Numbered from the stretch's first letter, positions 16,188 to 64,000 are shown. The stretch is DNA of 64,000 nt from Pyrinomonadaceae bacterium (GCA_036389395.1 DASVPY010000087.1:1774-65773), one strand, 5' to 3'. The notes: generated by a model from the letters alone, not told the origin. A program made the numbers and translations.

Positions 16188-16220
16188 GGCGGCGGGTGAT
16201 TGTGCGTTTCCGGCAAAATC

Positions 16221-37710: not shown

Positions 37711-37776
37711 GCGCGCCGCGATTATCGTTCGAGACGAGGGCGCGCGCCAAACGGTGCGTTGAAGAACGCGCACGCG

Positions 37777-38439: not shown

Positions 38440-38743
38440 CGGTGGCGGCGGGCGGCTCGGCAGGCCCGCTCAGGTGGCGGACGGTCTGACGGAAGTGCGC
38501 GATCTCCCAGAAGGCCATGGCGAAGTTGAGCAGGCCCAGCCCCGTCACCGCGCCGCGCACCCAGCCCGAAGCGATGGCGTGCTGCAAGCCGGGCAGCCCC
38601 GTCTTGTGCACCACGTAGACGAGGAAGAAGTTGTCGCCCCAGTCGGCCAGGCCGAACGGGTGCATCCACGGCAGGAAGGTCAGCACCAGCCCGGCCTCCA
38701 GGCACAGGACAATGTAGAAGATGACGGTCAGCTTCGCGGACAT
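38384..38743 (-). CDS. Small integral membrane protein (three predicted helices)
   Basis: 119 aa. Hydrophobic segments VIFYIVLCLEAGLVLTFL, FFLVYVV, VTGLGLLNFAMAFW. Its 3' end overlaps the thiE start by 56 bp. Confidence 0.55.
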   Translation of the reverse strand: MSAKLTVIFYIVLCLEAGLVLTFLPWMHPFGLADWGDNFFLVYVVHKTGLPGLQHAIASGWVRGAVTGLGLLNFAMAFWEIAHFRQTVRHLSGPAEPPAATDAPALARADQLPDHERRD

Positions 38744-44670: not shown

Positions 44671-44777
44671 AAAGACCCGAAGCTGCGTGTTCATACTCTG
44701 TCGCGAGAACCGGCACTTGGTTATAATCCTCGCCTTCACGTTGTGCCAGTAAGTTGGTCAGGTCAGTCTGTGAAGCT

Positions 44778-46766
<1,989 letters not shown>

Positions 46767-46787
<21 letters not shown>

Positions 46788-48302: not shown

Positions 48303-49367
48303 GTGCAACAGACGACAGACGACAGAGTGACGCCGCCGGCCGCCGATGCAGCGGCGCAGCCTGACGCGGCCGCGCCGCCGGCCGTCGCGCCGTCGCAGAC
48401 TGCTGCGTCCACGTCGCCGCTCGTCTTGCAAGACGTGGAGGAGCCGCGCGCCGACGGTCGCTACCGGCTCGAAGAACTGCTCGCCTATCACGACCGCGCC
48501 TTCGTCTCCTATGCCTACGCCGCGCTCGGCGACCGCCCGCCGACCGAAGCCGAATACGCCGCGACGCTCGCAGACCTGCGCTCGGGCCGGCGCGGCAAGG
48601 TCGAGATCATAGAGGCTCTGTGCGCGGCGGGCGCGCGCGCGCGCGTCGCGGGGTTGCCGTCGCCGCTGGCGCGCCGCCTGGCGCGTCTGCCCGTCGTCGG
48701 GCGCGTCGTGCGGCTCGTGCGCGCGCTCCTGCGCGTGCCACTGCTCGTCGAGCACCAGCAGCGGTTCGAGGCTTACGCGCTCGCGCAGCAGCAGCGCATC
48801 GCCGACCACCTGAACCAGACCTGCGCCGCGCTCAACCGCGCCTGCGCGGAGATTAGTCAAGCCCACGCCGACACCGTGCAAGTCCGCGCCGAGATCAACC
48901 AGGCGCTCGTTGACTTAGGCGAAGCACTCGCCATGCGCGCCGAGGAACTGGTCACGCTCGCCGCGGCGGTCGAGGCCGTGCAGGACGAGTTGCGGCACGG
49001 GCTGACCGGCGTGCAGCACGAACAGACCGGACTGTGGGACGAGTTGAGCGGCGCGCAGGACAGGCTGGCCGGCGTGCAACATAATCTGACGGCTGTGCAG
49101 GACAGGCTGACGGGCGTGCAGGACGAGTTGACCGACGTGCGGCGCGAGTTGAGCGGGCACGAAGGCTTTCTCGTGCAGGAGCAGCAGGTGCTCGTCGAGA
49201 CGCAGAAGGTCGTGCTCGACGATCTGCAAGAGCAGTTGCGCGCAGCGGACGCGCGCCACGACGAGGCGCACGCCGCGCTCGCGGCCGAAGTGGCGGCCCT
49301 GCGCGCCCTCGTCGCACAACTGCGCGGCGCTGCGCCGGACGAGGCGGCCGAAGGCGAGCAGGCATGA
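48303..49367 (+). CDS. DUF4214-like domain plus heptad coiled-coil protein
   Basis: GTG start. N-terminal FVSYAYAALGDRPPTEAEYAATLADLRSGRRGKVEIIEAL. Eight tandem heptads: LTGVQHE QTGLWDE LSGAQDR LAGVQHN LTAVQDR LTGVQDE LTDVRRE LSGHEGF. Confidence 0.7.
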   Translation: MQQTTDDRVTPPAADAAAQPDAAAPPAVAPSQTAASTSPLVLQDVEEPRADGRYRLEELLAYHDRAFVSYAYAALGDRPPTEAEYAATLADLRSGRRGKVEIIEALCAAGARARVAGLPSPLARRLARLPVVGRVVRLVRALLRVPLLVEHQQRFEAYALAQQQRIADHLNQTCAALNRACAEISQAHADTVQVRAEINQALVDLGEALAMRAEELVTLAAAVEAVQDELRHGLTGVQHEQTGLWDELSGAQDRLAGVQHNLTAVQDRLTGVQDELTDVRRELSGHEGFLVQEQQVLVETQKVVLDDLQEQLRAADARHDEAHAALAAEVAALRALVAQLRGAAPDEAAEGEQA

Positions 49368-51733
49368 AGCCTCTGGCGTTCGTCGTGCCGTGGTTCGGCG
49401 CGCGCCTCACCGGCGGCGCGGAGCAGCAGGCACGCCAAGTCGCCTTGCGGCTCGCCGCGCGCGGGCACGCCGTCGAAGTCCTGACCACCTGCAACCGCTC
49501 GTTCCAGGACGACTGGGCGCGCAACCACCACGCGCCCGGCGCGAGTACGGAAGACGGCTTGACCGTCCGCCGCTTCCCCGTGGACGAGCGCGCCGCGCAA
49601 GCCTTCGATCAAGTCAACGCCAAACTGCTCGCGCTCGACGCGCACGACCTGCGCCCCGGCGTCAGTCCTCTAACAGAAGCGGACGCGCACGTCTTCGTCC
49701 ACGAGAACATAAAATCGGCCGCGCTGCTCGCGCACCTGGCCGCGCGCGGCGCGGACTATCGCGCCTGCGTCTTCCTGCCTTACATGTTCGCGCCCGCCGT
49801 GCTGGGTCTGCCGCTCGTCGCCGCGCGCGCGTGGCTGCAACCGTGCCTGCACGACGAGCCGGCGGCGTACCTGCCCGAAACGGCGGCGCTCTTCCGCGCC
49901 GCGCGCGGGCTGCTCTTCAACTCCGAGGGCGAGATGGAACTCGCCCTGCGCCTCTACGGCCCCGGCATCTACACGCGCAGCCACGTCGTCGGCGAAGGCA
50001 TCGAGCGCCCGACGCTCGCGCCCGCGCAACTCGCCGCCGCGCTGCCCGCCGAGTTGCGCGGCGCACACTTCGTCCTCTATCTCGGCCGGCGCGACGCGAC
50101 GAAGAACGTCCCGCTGCTCGTCCGCGCCTTCGCGCGCTTCAAGGCCGCGCGCCCCGCCGACGCGCTCCGACTCGTGCTCGCAGGCCCCGGCGCGGACTCT
50201 TACGCCGACCCGGCGGCGTCCGTCCACGACCTCGGTCTCGTCTCGGACGAAACCAAGGCCGCGCTCCTCGCACACTGCCGCGCGCTCGCGCAGCCGAGCC
50301 GCCACGAAAGTTTTTCGCGCGCGCTGATGGAAGCCTGGGCCGCCGCCCGGCCCGTCGCCGCGCACCGCGAATGTTTGGCTACGGCCACGGCCGTCGAGCG
50401 CGCCGCCGGCGGCTGGCTCGCCGCGACCGAAGACGAGTGGGCGCAACTCTGCGCGCACGTAGCTGACACGACGGATGAAGAACTGTCCGCGCTCGGCGCG
50501 CGCGGCCACGCATACGCCGCCGAGCACGCCGAGTGGGTCAAGACCATCGCGCGCTACGAAACCTTGCTCGGTCTCGATCAAGACGAAGCGCCGACGCCGG
50601 ACGACGCCGCGTCGTCTTCGTCGCCGACGGAGGTGCGCGGGTTGCGCGCGATTCATCAACTGCTGCCGGACATCGTCTTCGGCGACGCGATCTCGCAGCA
50701 GGCGTGTGCGCTGCGCGCGCACCTGCGCGCGCACGGCTACGAGTCGGAGATTTTCGTCAAGCGGCGCGACCCGCGCCTCGCCGCCGACGCCGCGCAACTC
50801 GTAGACGAACAACAACCCGACGCAGACGCCGGTCTCATCTATCATCATTCCATCGGCTCGGCGGTGACGGCGTTGGCCGTTGCACACGCCGGGCCGAAGT
50901 GTCTCGTCTATCACAACGTCACGCCCGCGGAGTTCTACGCGCCTTACCGGCCCGGCTTCGCGTGGATGCTTGAGACGGGGCGCGCGCACCTGGGCCGGCT
51001 CGCGCGCCACTTCCCACTGTCGGTCGGCGACTCGGCCTTCAACGCGGCTGAGTTGGCCGCGTGCGGCTTCCGCGCGCCCGGCGTGCTGCCGATCATCGTA
51101 GACCCGGCGCGCTGGAACGACGCGCCCGACGCGGCGCTGATGGCGCGCTTGCAGGACGGGCGCACCAACGTCCTCTTCGTCGGCCGCGTCGCGCCGAACA
51201 AGCAGCAGGGGCGACTCGTCGCCGCCTTCGCGCACCTGCGCCGCCTGGACGCGCGCGCGCGCCTCGTCATCGCGGGCGAAGCGCCCGCGTCCGATCCTTA
51301 CTGCAACGCCGTGCGCGCGACCATCGCGCGGCTCGACCTCGCGGCGCACGTCGAACTGCCGGGCCAGAGCGAGGCGGCGGCGCTGCTGGCGTACTACCGC
51401 ACGGCGCACCTATACTGGTCGTTCAGCGAGCACGAGGGCTTCGGCGCGCCGCTCGTCGAAGCCATGTGGTTCGACGTGCCGGTCTTGGCCCTCGACGCCG
51501 CGGCCGTCGCCGAGACGCTCGCCGGGGCCGGCGTGCTGTTCGCGCGCGATGAAGAGTTGACGGCCGTGGCCGCGCGCGCGCACGCGCTGACGCACGACGC
51601 GGCGCTGCGGCGCGCGGTCGTCGCCGCGCAGCGCACGCGGCGGCTCGCCTTCACGCCCGCCGCCGTCTGGCCCGCGCTCGCGCGCGTCGTCGCGCGGCTC
51701 GCGGCGCAGACGCAGGCGGCCGCGGTCGCTTAA
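49364..51733 (+). CDS. Tandem double GT4-family glycosyltransferase (WbdA-like architecture)
   Basis: 789 aa. ATGA overlap with the upstream gene. Two GT-B halves with EX7E-type motifs (SRHESFSRALMEAW and SEHEGFGAPLVEAMWFDVPV). Confidence 0.8.
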   Translation: MKPLAFVVPWFGARLTGGAEQQARQVALRLAARGHAVEVLTTCNRSFQDDWARNHHAPGASTEDGLTVRRFPVDERAAQAFDQVNAKLLALDAHDLRPGVSPLTEADAHVFVHENIKSAALLAHLAARGADYRACVFLPYMFAPAVLGLPLVAARAWLQPCLHDEPAAYLPETAALFRAARGLLFNSEGEMELALRLYGPGIYTRSHVVGEGIERPTLAPAQLAAALPAELRGAHFVLYLGRRDATKNVPLLVRAFARFKAARPADALRLVLAGPGADSYADPAASVHDLGLVSDETKAALLAHCRALAQPSRHESFSRALMEAWAAARPVAAHRECLATATAVERAAGGWLAATEDEWAQLCAHVADTTDEELSALGARGHAYAAEHAEWVKTIARYETLLGLDQDEAPTPDDAASSSSPTEVRGLRAIHQLLPDIVFGDAISQQACALRAHLRAHGYESEIFVKRRDPRLAADAAQLVDEQQPDADAGLIYHHSIGSAVTALAVAHAGPKCLVYHNVTPAEFYAPYRPGFAWMLETGRAHLGRLARHFPLSVGDSAFNAAELAACGFRAPGVLPIIVDPARWNDAPDAALMARLQDGRTNVLFVGRVAPNKQQGRLVAAFAHLRRLDARARLVIAGEAPASDPYCNAVRATIARLDLAAHVELPGQSEAAALLAYYRTAHLYWSFSEHEGFGAPLVEAMWFDVPVLALDAAAVAETLAGAGVLFARDEELTAVAARAHALTHDAALRRAVVAAQRTRRLAFTPAAVWPALARVVARLAAQTQAAAVA

Positions 51734-51765: not shown

Positions 51766-52803
51766 TTGAGTCTGACGACGAGCAGCACGGGCGAGGGCGT
51801 GGCGGCGCGGCGGCGCGCGCGCGCCGACGAGTTGACGAGCGGGGACGAGCGCGCCCGGACGCGCCCGCTGCTCGCCGTCGTCGTGCCGTGCTACAACGAG
51901 GAGTTGGTCGTCGAGCGCACCGCCGCGCGTCTGACCGAGTTGCTGCGCGCGCTCGCCGCCGCCGGGCAGATCGATCCGGCGAGCTTCCTTTACTTCGTGG
52001 ACGACGGCAGCCACGACGCGACGTGGGCCATCATCGAGGCCTTGCACGAGCAGGATGCGGGCGTGAAGGGTCTGAAGCTGGCGCGCAACGTCGGCACGCA
52101 GAACGCGCTCCTCGCGGGCCTGCTCGGCGTCAAGGAGCGCGCCGACTGCGTGGTCACGATTGACGCCGACTTGCAGCAGGACGAGGCGGTCATCGAAAAG
52201 TTTCTGGCCGAGTACCGGCAGGGCGCGCACGTCGTCTACGGCGTGCGCCGCCGGCCCGGCACGAGTTCGCCCGTCAAGCGCGCGACCTCCTGGTTCTTCT
52301 ACCACCTGATGAGCGCGCTCGGCGCGCGCATCGTCAAGCAGCACTCGGAGTACCGGCTCGTCTCGCGCAAGGCGCTCGAAGCCGTCGCGGAATATCGTGA
52401 GTACAACCTGTTCCTGCGCGGCATCTTCGTGGACATCGGGTATCGTTCGGCCGTCGTGCCGTTCGACGCGCGGCGGCGCGAGGCGGGTGCGTCCAAGCAC
52501 GACTTCCGCAAGCTGGCGTCGCTGGCGCTCGACGGCATCACGTCGTTCAGCGTCGTGCCGCTGCGGCTGGTCACGTTCACCGGGGCGCTCATCTTCCTGT
52601 TCAGTTGCGCCATGACGATCTTCTACCTGTACCACAAGGTCGCGGGGCACACGCCGCCGGGCTGGGCCGGCACGGTCATCCCGATCTACTTCCTCGGCGG
52701 CGTGCAGATCATGTTCTTGGGATTAGTCGGCGAGTACGTCGGCAAGATTTACAAAGAGGTCAAAGCGCGCCCGCGCTTCATCCGCGACGAAGAGTTATTC
52801 TGA
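51766..52803 (+). CDS. GT2 polyprenyl-phosphate glycosyltransferase (GtrB/CsbB/ArnC-like) with two C-terminal TM helices
   Basis: VVVPCYNEE, VDDGSHD, TIDADLQQD motifs. C-terminal helices VVPLRLVTFTGALIFLF and IPIYFLGGVQIMFLGLVGEYVGKIY. Confidence 0.85.
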   Translation: MSLTTSSTGEGVAARRRARADELTSGDERARTRPLLAVVVPCYNEELVVERTAARLTELLRALAAAGQIDPASFLYFVDDGSHDATWAIIEALHEQDAGVKGLKLARNVGTQNALLAGLLGVKERADCVVTIDADLQQDEAVIEKFLAEYRQGAHVVYGVRRRPGTSSPVKRATSWFFYHLMSALGARIVKQHSEYRLVSRKALEAVAEYREYNLFLRGIFVDIGYRSAVVPFDARRREAGASKHDFRKLASLALDGITSFSVVPLRLVTFTGALIFLFSCAMTIFYLYHKVAGHTPPGWAGTVIPIYFLGGVQIMFLGLVGEYVGKIYKEVKARPRFIRDEELF

Positions 52804-52805
52804 AC

Positions 52806-52903
52806 TCTTTGCGCTCCTTTGCGGCCCTCTTTGCGCCCTTTGCGGTTAAAGCTTTAAGACCTAACCGCAAAGGTCGCCAAGCGGGCCGCAAAGGAGCGCA
52901 AAG
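52806..52903. repeat. CCGCAAAGG-family palindrome with a GCGGTTAAAG...CTAACCGC core
   Basis: ctctttgcgctcctttgcggccctctttgcgccctttgcggttaaag / ctaaccgcaaaggtcgccaagcgggccgcaaaggagcgcaaag. Confidence 0.85.
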
Positions 52904-52928
52904 AAAATAAGGTCTTAAAGGAACCGCG

Positions 52929-53837
52929 TTGCCAAGCACTGCGCCTGAGTTGAGCACGAGTGTCGATCCGATCTCGCCGTCGGCCGACGAGTCGGCCGCC
53001 TGCATCGTCTGCGGGCGCGCGGGCGCGGGCGCGCCGCTCTACCCCGGCATCCTCAAGTGCCGCGCGTGCGGCTACGTCTACGCCGACATGCGGCTGACTG
53101 ACGAGGAGTTGTTCGAGTTGTACAACGAGCAGTTCTTCACCGGCGCGGAGTTCAGCGACTACGCGGCGGACGAGCGTTTCTTCCGCCGCAATTTCCAGCT
53201 CCGCTTCCGCGCCCTCAAGCCCTTCCTCGACCCGGCGCGCCACCGCACGCTGCTTGAGATCGGCAGCGCCTACGGCTTCTTCCTCGCCGAAGTGCGCCCG
53301 CACTTCGCGCACGTCGAAGGCATAGACATCACGGACGCGGGCGTCCGGTTCGCGCGCGAGCGGTTCGGGCTGGACGTGGCGCAGGCCGACTTTCTGGCGC
53401 ACGACTACGGCGCGCGCACGTTCGACGTGGTCTGCCTGTGGGACACCATCGAGCACCTGCGCGCGCCGCACCGCTACGTCGCGAAGATCGCGCGCCACAC
53501 CGAGCCGGGCGCGCTCGTCTGCGTCACGACCGCCGACGCCGACAGCCTCAACGCGCGCCTGCGGGGCGCGCGTTGGCGCATGATCCACCCGCCGACGCAC
53601 CTGCACTACTTCTCCGCCGCGACGCTCGCGCGGCTGCTGGGCAACTACGGCTTCGAGGTCGTCTACAACCGCTACTGCGGCTTCTACCGCAGCCTGGGCA
53701 ACGTCGCCTACAACATCCTCGTCCTGCGCCAGCACCGCCCGCGCCTCTACCGTTGGCTCGAACGCACCGGCTTGACCGGCTTCGGCTTCTACCTCAACCT
53801 CTACGACATCATGTACGTCATCGCGCGGCGGCGCTGA
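52929..53837 (+). CDS. Class I SAM-dependent methyltransferase with an N-terminal Zn-ribbon
   Basis: TTG start. CIVCG...CRACGY. Motif I LLEIGSAYGFF. About 300 aa. Confidence 0.75.
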   Translation: MPSTAPELSTSVDPISPSADESAACIVCGRAGAGAPLYPGILKCRACGYVYADMRLTDEELFELYNEQFFTGAEFSDYAADERFFRRNFQLRFRALKPFLDPARHRTLLEIGSAYGFFLAEVRPHFAHVEGIDITDAGVRFARERFGLDVAQADFLAHDYGARTFDVVCLWDTIEHLRAPHRYVAKIARHTEPGALVCVTTADADSLNARLRGARWRMIHPPTHLHYFSAATLARLLGNYGFEVVYNRYCGFYRSLGNVAYNILVLRQHRPRLYRWLERTGLTGFGFYLNLYDIMYVIARRR

Positions 53838-53885
53838 CGGGCGCGGCTGATTATCTTGGTGCTTGAGTTTGTCGAGCGGCCGGTC

Positions 53886-53970
53886 TTAACACAGAGTACA
53901 CAGAGGTCACACAGAGGCCACGGTAAGAAACTCTGTGCCCTCTGTGTCTCCTCTGTGTCCTCTGTGTTAA
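53886..53970. repeat. CACAGAGG palindrome bounded by TTAACACAGAG / CTCTGTGTTAA, core GGTAAGAAACTC
   Basis: ttaacacagagtacacagaggtcacacagaggccacggtaagaaactctgtgccctctgtgtctcctctgtgtcctctgtgttaa. Confidence 0.85.
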
Positions 53971-53974
53971 TCCG

Positions 53975-56911
53975 ATGACACGCCACACTCAACCGCAAGT
54001 CCGCCACACGGCGCTCGTCGTCGGCGCTTACACGCTGCTCTACACGCTCTTCTTCGCGCCCGTCCTCTTCTCTGAACGCCTGCTCGCGCCGGGCGACGGC
54101 ATCATCTACTTCCTGCCGAACTTCGCCGCGCCGCGCGCCCTCTGGGACGCGCACACGTGGGGCGGCTTCGCGGCGGTCGGCGACGCGCAGTTGATGCTCT
54201 GGTATCCGCCCGCGATCTTGTTCTCACTCCTCGGCGCGAAGGCTTACGAGCCGTTCGTCGTGGCGGCTTACGTGCTCGCCAGCGCCGGCGCATACGGCTA
54301 CGTCTACACGCGCACGCGCGCGCGCCTCGCGGCGGCCGTCGGCGGCACGACCTACGGGCTGTGCGCCTTCATGGTCGCGCACGTCGGGCACGCCGCCGTC
54401 ATACACACCGCCGCCTGGCTGCCGCTCGTCATCTGGACGCTCGCCGAGTTGCGCCGACGACAAGCCGGTCGCCGCTGGTTCGTCGGCGCGGCGCTTGTGG
54501 TCGCACTCTCGGCGCTCGCGGGTCACCCGCAGATGTTCGCTTACACGTTGACGCTGGCGGGCTGCTTCGCGCTCGTCAACGGCTGGCGCGCGGAGTGCGG
54601 GCGCTGGCGCTACTACGCGCGCGCGGCCGCGGCGGTCGCCATCGGCGTCGGCCTCGCCGCCGTGCAACTCTGGCCGACGGCGGAACTGGCCGCGCAGAGT
54701 TGGCGCGCGGCGCTCGACTTCGGGGAGTTCGTCGCCTACTCGCTGCCGCTCAGGCAAGCGCCGGTGCTGCTGTTCCCTTACCTCTACGGCGGCGCGCCGG
54801 GCACGCTCTACGGGCTGCCTTACTTCGGCGCGTGGCCGTCGAGCGCGGACGGCTGGGGGGCGGGCGAGTTGAGCGGCTACGCGGGGCTGCTGCCGCTCGT
54901 GTTGGCGTGCGCGGGCTTCATCACTAAAAGACGCACGACCGAGGCGCGCTTCTGGCTCGCCGTCGCGGCGGTCGCGTTCCTGCTCGCGCTCGGCGACGCG
55001 ACGCCGCTCGCGCGCCTCGTCTACCAACTGCCCGTGCTCGACAAGTTCCGCGTGCCCGCGCGCCACTACCTCGAACTGACGTTCGCCGTCTGCGTGCTCG
55101 CGGGCGACGGCGTCGGCGCGCTGCAAGCACAAGCCACACGCAGCAAGCTGCTCGCGCGCGTGTTGCTCGGCGCGACGCTCGCTCTCGTTGTTACCTTGTG
55201 CGGGCTGTGGCTGTTCGCCGGCAAGGTCAACGCGCTCGCGCTCGCGCAACTCAACCGCACCGTCACGCTCAAGCCTTGGGCCAACCCGGCGCTCTACGTG
55301 CCGCTCCTGCTCTTCGTCATCATCGGCGCGGCGCTCGTCTACTGGCAGCACCGGCCCGATGCGCGCGCGCGCGCCGTCCTGCTCCTCGCCGCGCTCGTGC
55401 TCGACCTCGCCAGCTTCGGCTGGTTCTACGAGTGGCACTACCGCGCGCCTTACGAGGCTTACCTCCGTATGCCCGCGGCCGCCGAACCCTTGCGCGCCGA
55501 ACTCGCCGCCACGCACCAACGCCTGCTGCCCGTGCGCGGCGGCACGGGGCGCGTCGCCGAGTTGCCGCCCAACCTCTCCAAGCTCTGGCAACTGCCCAGC
55601 GCCAGCGGCTACGGCCCCTTCATCCCCACGCGCACCAGCCGCCTCCTCACCATGCCGCCCCACGGCAGCGTGGATGAATCGTGGCGCGACCCCGCCAACC
55701 AGGCGCTCGACCTCATGGGCGTCCGCTACGTGCTCCTGCCCGCCGGCGACATTGAGCCGACGACGACCGACGAGCAAGGCGCGCGCTGGGCGTTGAGCGA
55801 CTTCAACGTTGACCTCGGCCAAGGCTGCAACCCGGCCAACCCGCAAACTTACGAGTTCGATCTGCCGCGCCCCGTACACGCCGCCTCGGTCGCGCTCGTC
55901 GGCACGCTCGCCTGCTCCGTCCAGATACCCGACGGGCAGGAGGTGTTACAACTGACGCTCGACGGCGCGGACGGCGGCGACACGACGACGCTCCCTCTGC
56001 GCGCCGGCCAAGACTTCAGCGAGTGGGCCTACGACTGCGCCGACGTGCGCCCCACGATGCGCCACGCCCGCGCGCAGGTCTTTCGCAGCTACCCGGCCGA
56101 CCGCGCAGGCGCGCGCTGCGACGCGCACACCTACGTCAGCCAACGGCTGCCCCTCAACCTCTCCACGCCGCATGATCCCGTCCGCCACGTCGCGCTCCGC
56201 TGGACAGGCCCCGCCGGCACGTTCAGCCTCAGAAAGATCACCTTCTTCGACGACGCGCAGACCTCTTACCCCGTCACCCCGGCCGCGGCAGTGCTCGGAG
56301 ACATGACGCGCTGGCGACGCGCGGGCGAGATCGACGCGGCGCACGCGGGCTACCCGCCGACGGTCAAAGCCGAGGACGTGGGCGCGAGCGTCGTCTACGA
56401 AAACCTGCGCGCACGCCCGCGCGCCTGGCTCGTCTCGGAAGTCGCGCGCGTCTCGGCCGAAGAAGCCTTCAACGCCGCACGCACCTCACGCCTCCCCGAC
56501 GGCCGCGCCTTCGACCCCGCCCGCCTCGCCCTCGTCGAAGAGCCGCCGGACTTCCCACAGCAACAATCTGATCCACAAGCCACCGCCGAAGTCGTGCGCT
56601 TGACCGCGCGCGAACTCGTGGTGCGCGTCTCGTCGCACGCCCCCGCCTTCCTCGTCACCAGCGACACCTACTACCCCGGCTGGCGCGCGTTCATCGGCGA
56701 CGCGCCCGCGCCCCTCTACCGCGCCGACTACGCCCTGCGCGGCACGCCCGTCCCCGCCGGCACACACCTCGTCCGCTTCGAGTTCCGCCCGCGCACCCTC
56801 TACTACGGCGCGGCCCTCAGCGCGCTCTCACTCCTCCTGCTCGCCGCCTACACGCTCAGACCGACGCCCGTAAACCGCCAGCCCCAACAAACTCACGACC
56901 GCAAGGACTGA
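53975..56911 (+). CDS. YfhO-like polytopic membrane protein (putative GT-C-type extracytoplasmic glycosyltransferase), paralog 1 (divergent)
   Basis: 978 aa. N-terminal GDGIIYFLP motif. About 14 hydrophobic helices. C-terminal YYPGWRAFIGD...LRGTPVPAGTHLVRFEFRP plus a terminal TM helix. Confidence 0.7.
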   Translation: MTRHTQPQVRHTALVVGAYTLLYTLFFAPVLFSERLLAPGDGIIYFLPNFAAPRALWDAHTWGGFAAVGDAQLMLWYPPAILFSLLGAKAYEPFVVAAYVLASAGAYGYVYTRTRARLAAAVGGTTYGLCAFMVAHVGHAAVIHTAAWLPLVIWTLAELRRRQAGRRWFVGAALVVALSALAGHPQMFAYTLTLAGCFALVNGWRAECGRWRYYARAAAAVAIGVGLAAVQLWPTAELAAQSWRAALDFGEFVAYSLPLRQAPVLLFPYLYGGAPGTLYGLPYFGAWPSSADGWGAGELSGYAGLLPLVLACAGFITKRRTTEARFWLAVAAVAFLLALGDATPLARLVYQLPVLDKFRVPARHYLELTFAVCVLAGDGVGALQAQATRSKLLARVLLGATLALVVTLCGLWLFAGKVNALALAQLNRTVTLKPWANPALYVPLLLFVIIGAALVYWQHRPDARARAVLLLAALVLDLASFGWFYEWHYRAPYEAYLRMPAAAEPLRAELAATHQRLLPVRGGTGRVAELPPNLSKLWQLPSASGYGPFIPTRTSRLLTMPPHGSVDESWRDPANQALDLMGVRYVLLPAGDIEPTTTDEQGARWALSDFNVDLGQGCNPANPQTYEFDLPRPVHAASVALVGTLACSVQIPDGQEVLQLTLDGADGGDTTTLPLRAGQDFSEWAYDCADVRPTMRHARAQVFRSYPADRAGARCDAHTYVSQRLPLNLSTPHDPVRHVALRWTGPAGTFSLRKITFFDDAQTSYPVTPAAAVLGDMTRWRRAGEIDAAHAGYPPTVKAEDVGASVVYENLRARPRAWLVSEVARVSAEEAFNAARTSRLPDGRAFDPARLALVEEPPDFPQQQSDPQATAEVVRLTARELVVRVSSHAPAFLVTSDTYYPGWRAFIGDAPAPLYRADYALRGTPVPAGTHLVRFEFRPRTLYYGAALSALSLLLLAAYTLRPTPVNRQPQQTHDRKD

Positions 56912-59809
56912 GACGACGGCCCCCTTGCGCGCCGCCGTCGCCGCATAACGCATCTCGACTTTGTGTCGTCCGGCCGGCAGCGCCACGCCCCGCAGCAAGT
57001 AGTCCGTCAACAGGATCGGCCGCGCCGCTCCGTCCACACGCGCCTCCCAGCCCGGATAGAACAACTCACTCACGACCAAGACCGTCGGCGTCTGCGCCTC
57101 CGTCTCGATACTCAAACGCGTCGCCTCGTAGCTCACGACGCGCGCCGTCTGCGGCACGGCCGTCTGCGACGCCGAAGGTTGACCGAGCAAAGCAGGTAGC
57201 TCGTCGGGGCGCACTTCAAGCAGCGCGGTGCGCGCCGGGTCGAATGCGTCCGCGCCCTCGCCGCGGATGCGGCGCAACGCCTCTTCGCCGTCCACCGCCT
57301 CGGCCGCGGTGACGAGCCAGGCGCGGGGCTGGGCGCGCGTGTTGCGGAGGACGAGGATGCCGTCGAAGTCGGCGGCGGACTGCCAGCGTGTGGGATCGGG
57401 TGTGGCGCGCGCGGGGTCGCGCGTGAGCGGCGCGGACTGCGCGCTGCCGGCGTCGTACAGGCTCGCCTTCCAGACGACGAGCGCGGCCGTCTGCGCGACG
57501 TTGCTGATCTCGACGCGGCTGACCCGGCCGCGCCAGCCGAACGCCAGCCGCGCCCAGTAGCGGTGCGCCGCGTAGCCGCCCGTCTCGGCCACCGTGCGGC
57601 TGTCGAAGACGGGCGCGAGTTGATGCTTAATGTTGGCCCGCACGTCCGCGCGCTCGTGCGCCCACTCGGCCGTCTCCACCCCGGCGCGCAGTTCGCGCTC
57701 GACTCGACCGCCGTCCTCCATGAAGACGCGCACGCGCCCCACCGTTTCGCCCTGGGCCACGCCGACCGAGTTGGCCAAAGACGTGACGAGGGCGAGCGTG
57801 CCGGCGGGCGCTGCCGCGGCGGCGAGCGTCGCGGTCGCGCCGGGCGGGAGTTCGATGCCGAGTTCGGCTTGGTCGAGGCCGACGCCTTCGTGCTGTTCGA
57901 GTTGCGCGGCGGGTTGTTGGAACGCTTCGCGGAAGGCGACGACGTGCGTGACGTTGAGCAGATCGAGCACGCGCGCCTCCGGGCCCGTAAAGATGCGCGG
58001 CGGCGCGACGCCTGCGCGCGGGCGCACCGCGTCGTAGTCCACGTCGCCGAGCGCGCGGCTGTAGCGCGTGAGCAGCAGTTGCTCGTAGCCGGCGGCGTTG
58101 TGCAAGCCGTAGGGCGCGGTCTGCGCGAGCACGTCGAAGCGCGGCGCGGCGGCGTTCTCGTCCAGCCCCAGGTTCGCCTGCACGAAGACGCGCCCTTCGG
58201 CGGGCGGGAACTGTTGCAGGTAGCGCGTGGCCGCGCCCGGCGTCGTGAAGCGCGCGCCGGGCTTCGCCGTGCCCGGCCACCACTGCGCGATCAGGATCAG
58301 CGGCTCGGTCATGCAGCCGACGAACAGGGCGCACAGCAACAACGCCGCGCGCACGCGCCCCGCCGCCGCGCGCCGCAGCAGCCACAGGCCGGCACACAAC
58401 GGCACGAAGCTAATGAGTTTCCAACAGACGTAAGCGCGCGTCGTGCCGACCGTCAGACCGAACGGCGCGGCGCGCGCGACCGCGAGCCACCAGAGCACGC
58501 CGACCGTCGCGCTCAACGCGACGAGCAGCGCGGCGTAGCTCAGTCGTCCGCGTGCGGTCGTCGCGTCTCGCGCGTGTGCGCTCAGGGCGTCCCAGCCGTA
58601 GGCGGCGAGGGCGGCGAGGGCGAACGTCCAGACGAAGGCGAGGCGCGAGGGGACGCGGAACAGGTTCAGGACGGGCACGCGGTAGGCGAAGCGGTAGACC
58701 GGCGTGTGCTCGCCGAGCATGAAGACGAAAGCGCAGCCGGCCGCGGCGAGCCAGAAGAGGGCGCGCGGGTCTGGCTCCTTACGCCGGAGCGCGCGCGCGG
58801 CGGCGTAGAGCGCGAGCGCGAGTGCTAACGGCACGACGTAGGTCGTCACGTCTATGTAGTGGTAGAGCGGCGCGAGCGCCGACAGCAAGGCTTCGCGCGG
58901 CGTGAACGAACCCTGGCTGAAGAACTCGTAAGTGATCTCGTGCCGGATGCTGCGCCGCGCCGCGCGCCACGTCTCGAAGAGTTGAAAGCCGGCCACGCAC
59001 GCGCCCAGCGCCAGCCCGCACGCCGCGACGAACGCCGGCCGCCAACGCGCCAGCCTGTGCCGATTGAACACGCGCGAGCTTTCGCGCCCGCGCAAGTTTT
59101 CATGCTCGCTCGTGCCGTCCTTCGCAGATGCGTCTGTCTCTTCCGTCTGCGCCGGCACGAGGGCGAGGAAGAGTGCGTAAGCCACGCCGACGAGCGCGAC
59201 GAGCAGGAAGCTTTGGGCGTGGCCCGTCAGGACGGAGAGCGCGTAAAACCCGCCCGCGCCGGCCACGCAAGCCGAGAGCCGACGCGTGCGCGCGCGCTCA
59301 AGGGCGACGAGGAGGAGCGGCAGCCACGTCATCGCGTTCGTCGGGATGCCGTTCATGCCGAGCGCGTTCGTCGTCAGCCCGCCGTAAGCGAAGGCGAGAC
59401 CGGCGAGCAGCGCGGCGAGTCGGCTCCGCCCCAGCTCGCGCAGGTACGCGTAGGTGAATACGGGCATCAGCAGGAACGGCGCGAGGACGTAGAGTTCTTC
59501 GGCCCAGTGGTCGGGCAGGAAGAGGTGCCCCCAGGTGAGCGGGTAACCGAGACCGAGTTGCGCCATCGCGAGCAGCGGGTAGCCGGAGAGCACGTAAGGC
59601 GTCCAGGTGGGCGGCACGCCCGCGCGGATCATGCGCCACGCGACGGTGCGCATCGGGTAGGTGTAGAAGAACACGTCGCCGCCGATCAGGAAGCGACCGC
59701 TGAGGAGCGCCCAGCCGAACGCCGCACCGAACGCGAGCGCGCACACACCCAGCGCACACGCGTCCACGCGCCGCCGCCGCCACACGTCTCCTAAACGCGC
59801 CGCCCGCAC
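56828..59809 (-). CDS. YfhO-like membrane protein, paralog 2
   Basis: 993 aa. GGDVFFYTYPMRTVAWRMIRAGVPPTWTPYVLSGYPLL. C-terminal FYPGWEARVDGAARPILLTDYLLRGVALPAGRHKVEMRY. Its 3' end overlaps paralog 1 by 84 bp. Confidence 0.7.
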   Translation of the reverse strand: MRAARLGDVWRRRRVDACALGVCALAFGAAFGWALLSGRFLIGGDVFFYTYPMRTVAWRMIRAGVPPTWTPYVLSGYPLLAMAQLGLGYPLTWGHLFLPDHWAEELYVLAPFLLMPVFTYAYLRELGRSRLAALLAGLAFAYGGLTTNALGMNGIPTNAMTWLPLLLVALERARTRRLSACVAGAGGFYALSVLTGHAQSFLLVALVGVAYALFLALVPAQTEETDASAKDGTSEHENLRGRESSRVFNRHRLARWRPAFVAACGLALGACVAGFQLFETWRAARRSIRHEITYEFFSQGSFTPREALLSALAPLYHYIDVTTYVVPLALALALYAAARALRRKEPDPRALFWLAAAGCAFVFMLGEHTPVYRFAYRVPVLNLFRVPSRLAFVWTFALAALAAYGWDALSAHARDATTARGRLSYAALLVALSATVGVLWWLAVARAAPFGLTVGTTRAYVCWKLISFVPLCAGLWLLRRAAAGRVRAALLLCALFVGCMTEPLILIAQWWPGTAKPGARFTTPGAATRYLQQFPPAEGRVFVQANLGLDENAAAPRFDVLAQTAPYGLHNAAGYEQLLLTRYSRALGDVDYDAVRPRAGVAPPRIFTGPEARVLDLLNVTHVVAFREAFQQPAAQLEQHEGVGLDQAELGIELPPGATATLAAAAAPAGTLALVTSLANSVGVAQGETVGRVRVFMEDGGRVERELRAGVETAEWAHERADVRANIKHQLAPVFDSRTVAETGGYAAHRYWARLAFGWRGRVSRVEISNVAQTAALVVWKASLYDAGSAQSAPLTRDPARATPDPTRWQSAADFDGILVLRNTRAQPRAWLVTAAEAVDGEEALRRIRGEGADAFDPARTALLEVRPDELPALLGQPSASQTAVPQTARVVSYEATRLSIETEAQTPTVLVVSELFYPGWEARVDGAARPILLTDYLLRGVALPAGRHKVEMRYAATAARKGAVVSVLAVVSLLGLAVYGRRSERVGGEQEE

Positions 59810-59841
59810 CCTCTTCTCCGCTCCGTGCCTGATTCGGCTGG

Positions 59842-59939
59842 CCTCCGTGCGTCCTCTGTGTGCTCTGTGCCTCTGTGGTGAATGCTGTTGAACCTTAATT
59901 CACCACAGAGGCACAGAGCACACAGAGGACGCACGGAGG
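59842..59939. repeat. Perfect 42-bp inverted repeat (CACAGAGG subfamily, CTGTGGTGAAT...ATTCACCACAG core) with a 14-nt loop
   Basis: The reverse complement of 59898-59939 is identical to 59842-59883 (cctccgtgcgtcctctgtgtgctctgtgcctctgtggtgaat). Confidence 0.9.
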
Positions 59940-59954
59940 ATTGAACTTATGCCA

Positions 59955-62900
59955 TCAACGCTCAAGCCGGGAGGCGCGCCGGTCGTACACGAAGAGCGCG
60001 CACAATGAGACGAGTGCGAGCGCCGAGACGACGGCCCCGTTGCGCGCCGCCGTCGCCGCGTACCGCATCTCGACCGTGTGCCGCCCCGCCGGCAACGCCA
60101 CGCCCCGCAGCAAGTAGTCCGTCAACAGGATCGGCCGCGCTTGTCCATCAACACGCGCCTCCCAGCCGGGGTAGAAGATTTCACTCACGACCAACACGCT
60201 CGGCGTCGGCGCGTCGGTCTCGATCCGCAGCCGCGTCGGCTCGTAGCTGACGACGCGCGCCGCCGTCTGCGCCGGCACTGCGCCCGCGGCGGGCAAGTCG
60301 GGCAGCGCCGCGGGCGCGACCTCAAGCAGCGCGGTGCGCTGCGGGTCGAACTCGTGCGCGCTCTCGCCGCGGATGCGGCGCAACGCCTCTTCGCCGTCCA
60401 CCGCTTCCGCCGCGGTGACGAGCCAGGCGCGGGGCTGGGCGCGCGTGTTGCGTAGTAGCTCGACCTGCTCCTGGTTGTAGACGGTCTGCCAGAACTCGGA
60501 GCGGGCGGCGGCACTGAGCGGCGTGGAGACGCCGGTGCGCGTGTCGTAGACAGATGCACGCCAGACGGCGAGTGCGGCCGTGGGCGACACGTTAATGATT
60601 TCGACGCGACTGATCTTGGCGTGCGCGCCGAGCGCGAGCCGCGCCCAGTAGCGGTAGAACTGGAAGCTGCCCGTCTCGTCGCCCGCGCGTCCGTCGAAAA
60701 CAGGTGCGAGGCCGTGCTTGATGTTGGCGCGCACGTCCGCGCGCTCGTGCGCCCACTCGGCCGTGTCCACGCCCGCGCGCAACTCGCGCTCGAGCATCTG
60801 GCCGTCGTCCGTGAAGACGCGCACGCGCGCGACCGGCTCGCCTTGCGTCGCGCCGACCGAGTTGGCCAAAGACGTGACGAGCGCGAGCGTGTCGGCGGCC
60901 GCGGCCGCGGCGTGCAGTGCGACGGTCGCGCCGGGCGCGACGCTCACGTCGAGTTCCGTGACCGACAGCCCGATCTGGTCGCGGTAGGTGAGCGGGTCTT
61001 CAAACGACTTCAGGTTGGCGAACGTGACGACGTGGCGCACGTTGAGCAGGTCGAGCACGCGCGAGCGCACGGCGAACAGGTCTTCGTTGTGCGCGGGGAA
61101 GCCGGCGCGCGGCGTGACCGAATCAGGCCCGACGCCGCCGAGCGCGCGGCTGTAGCGTTCGAGCACGAGCGGCTCCATGCCGGCCGCGTCGTGCAGGCCG
61201 AAGAGCGCGGGCAGGTTCGGCGCGTCGAGCCGCGGGCGCGCGTTGAACTCTTCGGCGAAGAGGCCGGCGCGCGTGTAGACCCTGCCCTCTTCGGGCGGGA
61301 ACTGTTGCAGGTAGCGCGTCGCGGGCGCGACCAGTTGCAGGCGCGCGGCCGAGAGGCTGAGCAGCCGCCCCCACCAGCACGAGACGACCGCCGCCGGCTC
61401 GGCGAAACAGGCGAGCATGATCGTCGCGCCGAGGAGCGCGTTGCGCACGCGCGCCGCGCGCAGCGTGAAGCACAGAAAGGCGAGCGCGCAGACGACGACG
61501 TTGAAGGCGAGTTTCCAGAGCCAGTAGTAGGCTTCGGGTAGCCCCGTGTAGATCGACGGGTTCGGCACGGGCGGGGCGCTCGTCGCGCGCCACCACAGCG
61601 CGGCGACGACGCAGCCGACGGCGAACAGCAAGAGCGCGACGGCGAGTCGGAAGTTATGACCGCCTCGGCCGTGCGTCGTACTGCCGCCTGCTTCGTCCGC
61701 GGCGCGGCGGCGCGCGCGGAAGTAAGCGGCGGTCGCGTCCCAGCCGTAGGCGGCGAGGACGGCGAGGGCGAGCGTCCACTCGAAGGCGTGGCGCGAGGGC
61801 ACGCGGAAGCTGTTGACGACGGGCACGAGATAGACGAGGCGGTAGAGGGGCGTGTGCGCGCCGAGCATGAGCAGGAACGCCGCGCCGGCCACGGCGACCC
61901 AGAACCAGAGGCGCGCGTCGCGCGGCGTGCGCCCGCGCCACGCGCAGACGATGGCGACCGCGGCGAGCAGCAGCGCGAGCGGCGCGAGGTAGGCGCTCGT
62001 GTCCACGTAATGATAGAGCGGCGCGAGGATCGAGAGCGCGGCTTCGCGCGGCGCGAACGAGCCTTCGCCGAACGCCTCGTAAGAGAGTCCGCTGCGGATG
62101 CTGCGGCGCGCGGCCCGCAAGGCCTCGAACAGTTGGAACGACGCCACGCCCGCCGCCAATAACAGCGCGCCCGCCGCCGTTAATACAGGCCGCCAGCGCG
62201 CTTGTGTGAGCCAAGCCAACTTGCCTGTTCGCGTCGTCTCGTCGGGCGCGCGTCGTGACGCATGATCGGACGCACCTGGTGTCAGTTCATCGGGCGTGTT
62301 CTGCGTCACGTCTTCATGCGTGCCTTGCTTCACGTTCTTAAGCGCGAGGAAGAGACCGTAGGCGAGCGCGAGCAGACCCGTGTAGACGTAGCTCTGCCCG
62401 TGCCCGGCGAGGACGGCGAGCGTGTAGGCGACGGCCGCACGCGGCAGGGCGTGCGCCAACGGGCGCGTGCGCGCGCGCTCGACGTAGAGCAGCACGAGCG
62501 GGGCCCAGAGCGAGCCGTTCGTCAGCATCCCGCTGTTCGAGATGAAGCCGCACATCATGCCGCCGTAAGCGAAGGCGAGACCGGCGAGCAGCGCGGCTAA
62601 GCGACTGCGCCCCAGCTCGCGGCAGTAGGCGTAAGTCAGCAGCGGCGCGAGCAGGAAGGGCGCGAGCACGTAAAGCTGCTCGGCCCAAGGCCCGCGGATG
62701 AAGAGGTAGCCCCACGTCAGCGGGTAGCCGACGGCGACCTGCGACATAGAGAGCAGCGGGTAGCCGGAGAGCACGTGCGGCGTCCAGAGCGGCAGTTGGC
62801 CCGCGCGGATCATGCGCCAGGCGACGGTGCGCAGAGGGTAAGAGTAATAGTAGGCGTCGCCCGCGATGATGAAGCGGTCGCCGAACAGGACGTGCGGGAA

Positions 62901-63074
62901 GAAGGCGACGAAGAAGAGCGTGACGGCGGCGACGACGCACGCGTCCGCGCGCCGCCGCCGCCACAGCGCGCGCCAACCGCGACCGTCAACGACGGCGCGC
63001 CGCGCGTCGCCGCGCACCTCGGCCCGCAACCCTGCGTCGCGCTCTTGTACGTTCATGTCTTCGCGTCTGCTCAC
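59955..63074 (-). CDS. YfhO-like membrane protein, paralog 3 (start GTG 63074 or ATG 63056)
   Basis: 1039 aa. AGDAYYYSYPLRTVAWRMIRAGQLPLWTPHVLSGYPLL. The C-terminal domain is nearly identical to paralogs 2 and 4. Confidence 0.7.
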   Translation of the reverse strand: MSRREDMNVQERDAGLRAEVRGDARRAVVDGRGWRALWRRRRADACVVAAVTLFFVAFFPHVLFGDRFIIAGDAYYYSYPLRTVAWRMIRAGQLPLWTPHVLSGYPLLSMSQVAVGYPLTWGYLFIRGPWAEQLYVLAPFLLAPLLTYAYCRELGRSRLAALLAGLAFAYGGMMCGFISNSGMLTNGSLWAPLVLLYVERARTRPLAHALPRAAVAYTLAVLAGHGQSYVYTGLLALAYGLFLALKNVKQGTHEDVTQNTPDELTPGASDHASRRAPDETTRTGKLAWLTQARWRPVLTAAGALLLAAGVASFQLFEALRAARRSIRSGLSYEAFGEGSFAPREAALSILAPLYHYVDTSAYLAPLALLLAAVAIVCAWRGRTPRDARLWFWVAVAGAAFLLMLGAHTPLYRLVYLVPVVNSFRVPSRHAFEWTLALAVLAAYGWDATAAYFRARRRAADEAGGSTTHGRGGHNFRLAVALLLFAVGCVVAALWWRATSAPPVPNPSIYTGLPEAYYWLWKLAFNVVVCALAFLCFTLRAARVRNALLGATIMLACFAEPAAVVSCWWGRLLSLSAARLQLVAPATRYLQQFPPEEGRVYTRAGLFAEEFNARPRLDAPNLPALFGLHDAAGMEPLVLERYSRALGGVGPDSVTPRAGFPAHNEDLFAVRSRVLDLLNVRHVVTFANLKSFEDPLTYRDQIGLSVTELDVSVAPGATVALHAAAAAADTLALVTSLANSVGATQGEPVARVRVFTDDGQMLERELRAGVDTAEWAHERADVRANIKHGLAPVFDGRAGDETGSFQFYRYWARLALGAHAKISRVEIINVSPTAALAVWRASVYDTRTGVSTPLSAAARSEFWQTVYNQEQVELLRNTRAQPRAWLVTAAEAVDGEEALRRIRGESAHEFDPQRTALLEVAPAALPDLPAAGAVPAQTAARVVSYEPTRLRIETDAPTPSVLVVSEIFYPGWEARVDGQARPILLTDYLLRGVALPAGRHTVEMRYAATAARNGAVVSALALVSLCALFVYDRRASRLER

Positions 63075-64000
63075 AACGTCCGCCGCGCGCGCGCGCGCCG
63101 CGCGTAGAGGCCAAGCCCGGCGAGCAGGGCGAGCGTCAGCGCCGAGACGACCGCGCCCTTGCGCGCTGCCGGCGCGACGTAACGCATCTCGACTTTGTGT
63201 CGTCCGGCCGGCAGCGCCACGCCCCGCAGCAAGTAGTCCGTCAACAGGATCGGCCGCGCCGCTCCGTCCACACGCGCCTCCCAGCCCGGATAGAAAAGCT
63301 CGCTCACGACTAACACGCTCGGCGTCGGCGCATCCGTCTCGACAGTCAGACGCGTCGCCTCGTAGCTCACGACGCGCGCCGTCAGTGGCGTAGTCGTCTG
63401 CGCGGCTGCCTGCGCCGGTTCATCAGTCGCCGCCGTTGAAGGCTGACCGGGCAAAGCGGGTAATTCTTCGGGGCGCACTTCGAGCAGGGCGGTGCGTTGC
63501 GGGTCGAACTCGTGTTGGCTCTCGCCGCGGATGCGGCGCAACGCTTCGTCGGCGTCTACTGCTTCCGCCTCAGTGACGAGCCAGGCGCGGGGCTGGGCGC
63601 GCGTGTTCTGTAGGATGAGCGTGTCGTGCTGCTCGTAGACGGGCCGCCAGGCGTCGGAGTAGAGACCGAAGAGCGACGCGGCGCGGCCCGTGCCGGCGGC
63701 GCGCAGCTTCGCGTCGTAGATGGCGAGCCGCGCGTGCGGCGAGACGTTGTCCACTTCGATGCGTTTGACCTCGGCGGGCGCGGGGAACGCGAGCGCCGCT
63801 TTGAAGCGGTGCGCCGCGAACTGGCCGCCCGCGCCGTCGCTGACCTGCGTGCTCTCGGCGACGGGCGCGAGCCGGTGGCGCACGAGCGCGCGCACGTCCC
63901 CTCGCTCGTGCGCCCACTCGGCGGTGTCTCGGCCCGCTTGCAGCTCAAGCTCGAACGTGCGCCCGTCCGCCGCGCGCACGCGCACGCGCGCCACGACCGC
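63071..64000 (-). CDS. YfhO-like membrane protein, paralog 4 (C-terminal part only; the gene continues beyond the window)
   Basis: The translation aligns with the C-terminal roughly 300 residues of paralogs 2 and 3 (RDTAEWAHERGDVRA..., FYPGWEARVDGAARPILLTDYLLRGVALPAGRHKVEMRY). The M at 63994 is not the real start. Confidence 0.7.
   Translation of the reverse strand, partial: AVVARVRVRAADGRTFELELQAGRDTAEWAHERGDVRALVRHRLAPVAESTQVSDGAGGQFAAHRFKAALAFPAPAEVKRIEVDNVSPHARLAIYDAKLRAAGTGRAASLFGLYSDAWRPVYEQHDTLILQNTRAQPRAWLVTEAEAVDADEALRRIRGESQHEFDPQRTALLEVRPEELPALPGQPSTAATDEPAQAAAQTTTPLTARVVSYEATRLTVETDAPTPSVLVVSELFYPGWEARVDGAARPILLTDYLLRGVALPAGRHKVEMRYVAPAARKGAVVSALTLALLAGLGLYARRARARRTL

Follow-up and report, generated by a model that had tools for sequence, protein, structure and literature searches.

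A predicted lipid-sugar synthase and four YfhO-type membrane proteins in a probable surface-polysaccharide locus conserved in Pyrinomonadaceae

Introduction

What would a diderm soil acidobacterium do with one synthase of a lipid-linked sugar and four large membrane proteins of YfhO type? The question is raised by a 64,000-nucleotide stretch of DNA from a Pyrinomonadaceae bacterium (GCA_036389395.1, DASVPY010000087.1:1774-65773), referred to here as the window and numbered from its first nucleotide. Its last part, from position 51766 to 64000, encodes a family 2 glycosyltransferase (GT2), a methyltransferase and four proteins of about 1000 amino acids, named Y1 to Y4. Acidobacteria rank with the most abundant bacteria of soil, and to our knowledge almost nothing is known of the way their cell surface is built. 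Studies of YfhO-family enzymes in the literature searched were confined to Firmicutes, with teichoic acids and Ser/Thr-rich proteins as the targets, and no paper was found that connected YfhO with Acidobacteria or, in diderms, with the modification of O antigens.

The region is best explained as the distal half of a conserved surface-polysaccharide locus of Pyrinomonadaceae (Acidobacteriota) in which two known modules are joined. The account favoured here, by a modest measure, is that Y1-Y4 carry out periplasmic glycosylation of the kind known from the Gtr and Gml systems and decorate a polysaccharide exported by an ATP-binding cassette (ABC) transporter, with the flippase encoded at an unlinked site.

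Results

Layout of the array

Genes were chosen by third-position guanine plus cytosine (GC) content. The plus strand carries GT2 (51766-52803, 345 amino acids), a class I S-adenosylmethionine-dependent methyltransferase (52929-53837, 302 amino acids) and Y1 (53975-56911, 978 amino acids). On the minus strand, Y2 (56828-59809, 993 amino acids), Y3 (59955-63056, 1033 amino acids from its ATG) and Y4 (63071-64000 within the window, with its stop at 63071 and its C-terminal 309 codons inside) form a tandem triplet that begins with Y2, has a period of ~3.1 kb and is convergent with Y1. The complete Y4 gene was read from the source contig (L001:5816-8803) and encodes 995 amino acids. The GT2 and methyltransferase genes and all four Y genes are intact. 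The Y3 start was taken from the public gene call (ATG at 63056). A GTG at 63074 would give 1039 amino acids; no exact protein of that form is on record, and the ATG form is recorded on two contigs.

A preliminary description of the region, made from the window alone, had placed four YfhO genes after GT2 and allowed that more might follow. All four were found, with only Y1 on the strand of GT2 and Y2-Y4 on the opposite one, and the methyltransferase gene between GT2 and Y1 had been overlooked. Extension along the contig, which ends 7.9 kb past the window, gave a DUF4214 protein, a 378-amino-acid family 4 glycosyltransferase (GT4) and an 864-amino-acid PD40-repeat protein beyond Y4, and no further copies. 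The array at this locus consists of four copies and ends with Y4.

Y2, Y3 and Y4 are 52-56% identical to one another (Y3 is 56% identical to Y2 and 54% to Y4 over its full length), and Y1 is 28% identical to the triplet; homology spans the whole length in each case. By an exact protein match of Y3, the window lies close to one end of a 397-kb contig of JGI metagenome 3300034172 (Ga0334913_000009), and the same arrangement was present on an independent ENA assembly. Recent amplification and assembly artefact were both considered as the origin of the array and were rejected because the paralogs are this divergent, because the two assemblies agree, and because positional orthologs occur in other metagenome-assembled genomes (MAGs).

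The 3' ends of Y1 and Y2 share 84 bp (56828-56911), and the overlap is the same in the public gene calls of both assemblies. At a related locus (L004) the counterparts of Y1 and Y2 lie without overlap. In the YPGW...PAGRH region, which makes up the last ~70 residues before the final transmembrane (TM) helix, Y2, Y3 and Y4 share 85-90% identity, compared with an overall ~55%, and the corresponding DNA (56896-57168, 60011-60283 and 63130-63402) is 81-89% identical between copies. Either strong constraint or gene conversion among the tandem copies would account for this high 3' identity.

Family assignment of Y1-Y4

Matches to Pfam family PF09586 (YfhO) were scored against its gathering score of 28.5 bits, which was reached by Y1 (65.4 bits), Y2 (31.3 bits) and full-length Y4 (40.9 bits); Y3 fell below it (22.4 bits). 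All 33 family members scanned matched PF09586 at E <= 0.01, and the sole other match was a marginal one to DUF6044. When the N-terminal 520 residues were scored alone, Y1 gave 29 bits, just over the gathering score, Y4 12.9 bits (co-linear), Y2 6.7 bits and Y3 no match. Rival GT-C families (PMT_2/ArnT-like, DUF2723 and Emb arabinosyltransferase) were matched by none of the 33 members at E <= 0.01, and rival GT-C Pfam families by none of the four N-terminal halves at E <= 10. By these matches Y1-Y4 are assigned to the YfhO family and to no other, with Y1 as the single-copy, more canonical type. Several homologs are already named 'YfhO family protein' by NCBI.

The preliminary description of four ~1000-residue YfhO-type proteins is borne out, PF09586 being the only convincing Pfam family; Y3 scored under the threshold but shares 54-56% identity with Y2 and Y4. 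The other assignments named there (arabinosyl- or mannosyltransferase, DUF2723) were looked for with Pfam and none matched. The N- and C-terminal motifs described there exist, in the forms GDVFFYTYP...W...PxW.P....GYP and YPGWEARVDG.....LLTDYLLRGVALPAGRHKVEMRY; as literal patterns they fail, since their spacing is off by about one residue, and only patterns of relaxed spacing match.

The size of the wider family was estimated by a profile search of 1.84 billion representatives (50% identity clusters), which yielded 73,861 matches at E <= 1e-3, of which 14,556 reached E <= 1e-30. The best 150 of these matches were all close relatives.

Fold, topology and conserved residues

Neither sequence nor fold search of the PDB turned up a solved structure of the YfhO family, and Y1 had no sequence match among PDB chains even at E 10. 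Y2 was modelled by AlphaFold2 from a 73-sequence alignment (predicted local distance difference test score, pLDDT, 91.5; predicted template modelling score, pTM, 0.88). Foldseek comparison of the model with the PDB gave AftD as the best match (E 2.8e-12), followed by EmbA/EmbB (2e-6), yeast STT3 (2.7e-5), AglB (1.2e-4) and ArnT (1.1e-3). With AftD and Emb the identity is 11-14% and the TM-score 0.17-0.42, the periplasmic domain included. Y2 is predicted by its model to adopt the GT-C fold.

In the model, helical membrane segments occupy residues 3-513, a mixed or mainly beta domain residues 516-957, and a terminal helix residues 958-992; hydropathy agrees. Each Y protein has ~12-13 N-terminal TM helices, then a beta-sandwich domain of ~440 residues, predicted to be periplasmic, and one last TM helix. 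The YfhO protein of Bacillus subtilis is described as having 13 TM helices and a large external loop between the last two (PMC5836110), and the topology of Y2 fits this.

The Asp of the GD motif directly after the first TM helix (D45 in Y2; D41 in Y1, where the motif is residues 40-41) is invariant in 73 of 73 sequences, and it is among 68 columns that are invariant in an alignment with all four paralogs. The Arg-rich N-terminus and the positive-inside rule would place this loop-1 Asp on the periplasmic side, where it may have a catalytic role.

The periplasmic domain of Y2 (residues 516-957) was also modelled alone (pLDDT 90.9). Apart from AftD, its Foldseek matches were low-probability jelly-roll, cupin and carbohydrate-binding module (CBM)-like folds. 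Carbohydrate binding by the domain is plausible from the model. The matches do not single out a CBM family, as those beyond a weak one to AftD were generic.

The structural matches bear on an alternative in which the paralogs work one after another, as priming, extending, branching and capping enzymes, and so build a second glycan domain from one polyprenyl-phosphate-sugar donor. Their substrate would be a backbone made in the cytoplasm, possibly with methylated sugars, and exported by Wzm/Wzt, as galactan is for AftA, EmbA/B and AftB-D. AftD and then EmbA/EmbB lead the matches for the full-length protein, and AftD leads those for the periplasmic domain. Like the mycobacterial embCAB and AftA-D sets, the array contains several large GT-C paralogs of ~1000 residues, partly in tandem, with C-terminal periplasmic beta-sandwich (CBM-type) domains; arabinan assembly there likewise combines one polyprenyl-phosphate-sugar donor with a cytoplasmic backbone exported by Wzm/Wzt, the galactan leaving by this route before it is arabinosylated in the periplasm (PMC13649706; PMC11127046). 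Loci with four to six paralogs, or more, also seem to go beyond what side-chain decoration would require. Identities of 11-14% and TM-scores of 0.17-0.42, however, amount to a shared fold only, with no detectable sequence-family tie, and no Emb or Aft Pfam family was matched. The donor synthase here is GtrB-like (hexose or N-acetylhexosamine type) and does not belong to the phosphoribosyltransferase/epimerase (DPPR/DprE) route of mycobacteria. Close relatives differ in copy number, from 1 to 5, which is easier to reconcile with optional decoration than with an obligatory line, and nothing at this locus points to polymerising over single-sugar activity. Sequential assembly by the paralogs is considered rather unlikely.

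GT2 and the methyltransferase

GT2 matched PF00535 (74.8 bits) and gave a full-length alignment with the structure of GtrB from Synechocystis (5EKP, E 4e-55; residues 36-339 against 28-325). The alignment takes in the IDADLQ motif (DAD/DXD) and both C-terminal TM helices, which were placed by hydropathy at residues 268-286 and 304-322. GT2 is predicted to be a GtrB-type polyprenyl-phosphate glycosyltransferase, and its earlier description as a GtrB/CsbB-type enzyme with two C-terminal TM helices is supported.

The methyltransferase matched Pfam Methyltransf_23 (101.5 bits) and carries an N-terminal CxxC...CxxC element. Sequence comparison with the PDB gave generic matches only and no similarity to WbdD. 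Across related loci the protein is 56-82% identical and always lies between GT2 and Y1.

Conservation across relatives

A scan of one genome per GTDB species gave 252 relatives, from which 73 loci were fetched and searched by tblastn with the window proteins. The closest homologs were proteins of Pyrinomonadaceae, Pyrinomonadales or Acidobacteriota MAGs. Many related MAG loci share one order: Wzt, coiled-coil protein, double GT4, GT2, methyltransferase and Y1, facing Y2-type copies, followed by DUF4214, GT4 and PD40 genes. The whole forms a conserved Pyrinomonadaceae super-locus of a Wzy_C/PDZ protein, Wzm, Wzt, coiled-coil protein, double GT4, GT2, methyltransferase, Y1 and 1-5 Y2-type copies. 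The coiled-coil protein is kept between Wzt and the double GT4 at 33-43% identity, and the double GT4 beside GT2 at 56-73%. The preliminary description had offered a choice between a GT2 that serves the YfhO proteins and one tied only to Wzm/Wzt. This choice falls away: because the same-strand string from Wzt to Y1 is conserved in many relatives, GT2 is tied to both.

Y1 is single-copy in most loci, with orthologs 51-67% identical that lie beside the methyltransferase in most of the more complete loci. Y2-type copies number from 1 (L013, L050, L059) to 5 (L025) per locus; L004 contains a second GT2-methyltransferase pair together with an extra YfhO gene, and three contigs of one MAG (L007, L061, L065) hold at least 8 YfhO-like genes between them. 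L020 and L008, which are the closest relatives, have positional orthologs arranged in the same Y4-Y3-Y2 order. Y2 is 62-66% identical to its orthologs elsewhere, against 52-56% to its own paralogs. As orthologs are closer than paralogs and hold their positions, the duplications must be old and the copies maintained, which argues for distinct functions.

Some related arrays (L004:5016-7016, L003:1568-3562) also encode a polytopic protein of ~665 amino acids that matched no Pfam family. A GD motif follows its first TM helix, and a short segment of it resembles the FRVP region of Y3; the protein may be a shorter GT-C-like relative that lacks most of the periplasmic domain. Y2-type genes (41-43% identity, 53-58% GC) were also found in MAGs titled 'Heliomicrobium sp.' (Bacillota; L045, L051, L054, L064, L070, L075), either through mislabelling or because the subfamily is present outside Acidobacteriota.

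The conserved order speaks against mere adjacency, in which GT2 would belong to another pathway, such as a lipid A or core modification like that of ArnC, and the YfhO-like proteins would use another donor or be non-catalytic. GT2 does show a weaker similarity to ArnC (PDB 9BHC, E 8e-32; 122 bits in NCBIfam, where the cut-off is 529). Y1 and the methyltransferase occur without GT2 in the fetched stretches of L003/L007, L006 and L010, and many Y2-type genes are dispersed. Against these stand the GT2-methyltransferase-Y1 order kept in many independent MAG loci and the second pair in L004 that accompanies an extra YfhO gene. The product of a GtrB-type enzyme is, moreover, useful only to an enzyme of GT-C type, and the window otherwise shows only the Wzy_C protein as such. 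The 68 invariant columns, loop-1 Asp included, would also suggest active enzymes. Mere adjacency is judged very improbable.

The surrounding polysaccharide locus

Upstream of GT2 lies a polytopic Wzy_C protein with an inserted PDZ domain (42197-43735, plus strand; Wzy_C 51.7 bits, PDZ_2 33.8 bits), the candidate ligase of the super-locus. Wzm, an ABC-2 permease with six hydrophobic segments (43788-44612, minus strand; ABC2_membrane PF01061, 67 bits), is followed by a DUF885 protein (44754-46787, plus strand) and by Wzt, an ATPase (46834-48195, plus strand) with an ABC_tran domain (PF00005) and a C-terminal Wzt_C domain (PF14524, 125 bits). Wzt matched the Aquifex O-antigen transporter Wzt (8DKU/7K2T, E 1.6e-82). 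Next on the plus strand are the coiled-coil protein (48303-49367, 354 amino acids), for which only weak coiled-coil Pfam matches were obtained, and the double GT4 (49364-51733, 789 amino acids), in which Glycos_transf_1 and Glyco_trans_1_4 each matched two stretches and Glyco_trans_4_4 also matched. The coiled-coil stop overlaps the double-GT4 start by 4 bp. This is the single overlap in a one-strand string of DUF885, Wzt, coiled-coil, double GT4, GT2, methyltransferase and Y1 genes with gaps of at most 137 bp.

The double GT4 gave generic PDB matches by sequence and no link to WbdA; from its domains it is a candidate cytoplasmic polymerising glycosyltransferase. The coiled-coil protein may act as a scaffold or chain-length ruler.

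The Wzy_C protein is of the O-antigen ligase/O-oligosaccharyltransferase type, and its PDZ domain sits between TM segments, a position that could hint at a protein acceptor. Its homologs adjoin Wzm in L038 and L069. In this genome the DUF885 gene separates Wzm from Wzt; in L027, L038, L043, L046 and L069 the two are directly adjacent and divergent. DUF4214 proteins flank the PD40-repeat gene in many related loci.

Comparison with glycosylation of proteins

O-glycosylation of proteins has to be weighed as well. The YfhO paralogs would move the sugar from the polyprenyl phosphate loaded by GT2 to Ser/Thr/Pro-rich linkers of secreted or membrane proteins, different paralogs serving different substrate proteins or adding successive sugars. 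The top NCBIfam match of GT2 is PgfS, and the C-termini of Y1-Y4 weakly match PgfM1/PgfM2. In streptococci, YfhO-family PgtC2 and PgfM1 glycosylate Ser/Thr-rich disordered regions (PMC11092751); both Pgf and GtrB/PgtC2 pair the same type of GT2 with a YfhO-family GT-C, and the Pgf cluster has two YfhO paralogs, PgfM1 and PgfM2. A possible substrate is at hand in the conserved, secreted PD40-repeat protein of 864 residues, encoded ~5-7.5 kb past the window end (L001:499-3093, plus strand), whose PT/ST-rich linkers include TPTPTASPTPDP and ATPTASPTPTPSPTP, and the Wzy_C protein of the locus carries a protein-binding PDZ domain.

The scores, however, lie far under the equivalog cut-offs: 223 bits for PgfS against 500, and 14-19 bits for PgfM against 1400-1500. 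PT-rich linkers are common and are by themselves no evidence of glycosylation. Neither an epimerase nor adhesin substrates lie in this locus, which has an ABC polysaccharide exporter instead, and the tight, conserved, same-strand linkage is to Wzt, the coiled-coil protein and the polymerising-type double GT4 rather than to any substrate protein. The top structural matches are AftD/Emb enzymes, which act on polysaccharide. Glycosylation of proteins by this array is accordingly held to be improbable.

Proposed mechanism

The favoured account is decoration of the exported polysaccharide. In the first module, the double GT4 and the 378-residue GT4 beyond the window would, from their families, build a lipid-linked glycan in the cytoplasm. 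Wzm/Wzt would export it, the Wzt_C domain implying recognition of a capped chain end; capping and the control of chain length may fall to the methyltransferase and the coiled-coil protein. In the second module, of Gtr/Csb type, GT2, working at the membrane's inner face, would load a monosaccharide onto polyprenyl phosphate. A flippase encoded elsewhere would carry the polyprenyl-phosphate sugar across, and Y1-Y4 would use it in the periplasm to glycosylate the exported polymer. That several paralogs draw on one lipid-sugar donor is plausible. They most likely differ in acceptor site or linkage, because they form old, separate orthologous groups whose number varies between genomes, and the surface glycan would be diversified as a result.

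The first module compares by domain content with the WbdA/WbdD/Wzm/Wzt system of Escherichia coli O8/O9a. In both, Wzt bears a carbohydrate-binding domain at its C-terminus, and a polymerase-like GT4 enzyme of several domains is accompanied by a methyltransferase and a coiled-coil element. Here the methyltransferase and coiled-coil are separate proteins with no detectable WbdD similarity, and a chain-terminator role for the methyltransferase is conjectural.

For the second module, the CsbB-YfhO pairs of B. subtilis, Staphylococcus aureus and Listeria monocytogenes have the same two families side by side: next to a GT2 whose C-terminus carries two TM helices stands a PF09586 protein, likewise with ~13 TM helices and a large external domain between the last two. 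Their flippase, too, is encoded elsewhere. They glycosylate teichoic acids, which the diderm acidobacterium lacks, and have one YfhO where four are found here and where the more complete of the related loci have from 2 to at least 5. Unlike those pairs, the array lies in a Wzm/Wzt locus with a methyltransferase between GT2 and Y1, and the Pfam match of its Y2-type proteins is weak (22-41 bits). The mechanism first proposed for the array, in which a lipid-sugar GT2 feeds YfhO enzymes outside the cytoplasm, is broadly retained; teichoic acid is not the expected acceptor in a diderm acidobacterium.

Functional parallels exist in the Gram-negative envelope. Decoration of O-polysaccharides by the three-component GtrB/GT-C route, ABC-dependent polymers included, is established in Gram-negatives (PMC11127046). 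Gtr of Shigella and Salmonella and Gml of Klebsiella O2 likewise combine a GtrB-type synthase with a GT-C that acts on polymerised O-polysaccharide, and the Klebsiella backbone is also ABC-transporter-dependent (PMC11127046). The remark that the array maps onto no characterised Gram-negative pathway was thus incorrect, as the Gtr systems and the ABC-dependent Klebsiella O antigen fit (PMC11127046). Differences are that the Gtr/Gml GT-C enzymes are much smaller and fall outside the YfhO family, that their operons normally include GtrA, which has no linked counterpart here, and that Gtr and Gml usually occur as single copies and are carried by phages or accessory, where this array is a conserved chromosomal paralog set.

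Several results weigh against decoration of the exported polysaccharide. Many Y2-type genes lie at other loci with no GT2 or Wzm/Wzt nearby, so not every paralog need serve the Wzm/Wzt polysaccharide. The YfhO enzymes characterised in the literature searched act on teichoic acids or Ser/Thr-rich proteins, and none on O-polysaccharide. GT2 falls under every NCBIfam equivalog cut-off, and as its scores lie below those of PgfS and ArnC the donor sugar is not assignable from NCBIfam. The periplasmic domain finds its best Foldseek match in the soluble region of AftD (E 8e-7), but with a TM-score of 0.17. No initiating phosphoglycosyltransferase was recognised among the window genes scanned.

A flippase was sought with a crude hydropathy filter for small open reading frames with at least 3 TM segments. 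By this filter, Wzm was the only small polytopic frame in the 64-kb window and in the 6 kb scanned beyond it, in agreement with the earlier statement that the window has no GtrA-type gene; none was found in 78 related loci or in public gene calls, and this, too, counts against the proposal. In Firmicutes, the GtrA-type flippases GtcA and CflA are encoded apart from the GT-A/GT-C pairs and shared among them (PMC8035078), so an unlinked flippase is not anomalous. By analogy, the flippase may be encoded elsewhere in the genome.

Other features of the window

GC content along the window is 62-73%, with the exception of one low-GC island beside glnA (GC 0.54 at 16001-18000, against ~0.69). Two adjacent genes there (16221-18226, minus strand) encode a D12-class N6-adenine DNA methyltransferase (117 bits) and a HaeIII-family restriction endonuclease (273 bits), which probably form a type II restriction-modification system gained by horizontal transfer. 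It is unusual for a HaeIII-type nuclease to be paired with an adenine methylase. A reading frame of 342 codons (9978-11006, minus strand) in a lower-GC stretch (GC 0.625) has a hydrophobic N-terminus and no Pfam match. No RNA family was found by Rfam at gathering score in the window (1-64000), including the region upstream of the thiE/thiD genes at 36853-38469.

Discussion

All components of this locus belong to known families. What is new is the presence of YfhO-type GT-C proteins in a diderm acidobacterium, their fixed linkage to an O-antigen-type exporter, the methyltransferase partner, and paralog sets that are old and variable. The varying number of old paralogs suggests a major route of surface-glycan diversification, possibly of relevance to evasion of phages and predators, to desiccation tolerance and to adhesion in soil. 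Were the paralogs instead to work in sequence, the locus would correspond, in Acidobacteria, to the assembly of arabinogalactan in mycobacteria, but derived from another GT-C family and diversifying by gain and loss of paralogs. The array is also a natural series of GT-C enzymes with a presumed shared donor, useful for learning how acceptor specificity is encoded in a family so little understood, and with ~74,000 cluster representatives in the family, any rule learned here would apply broadly.

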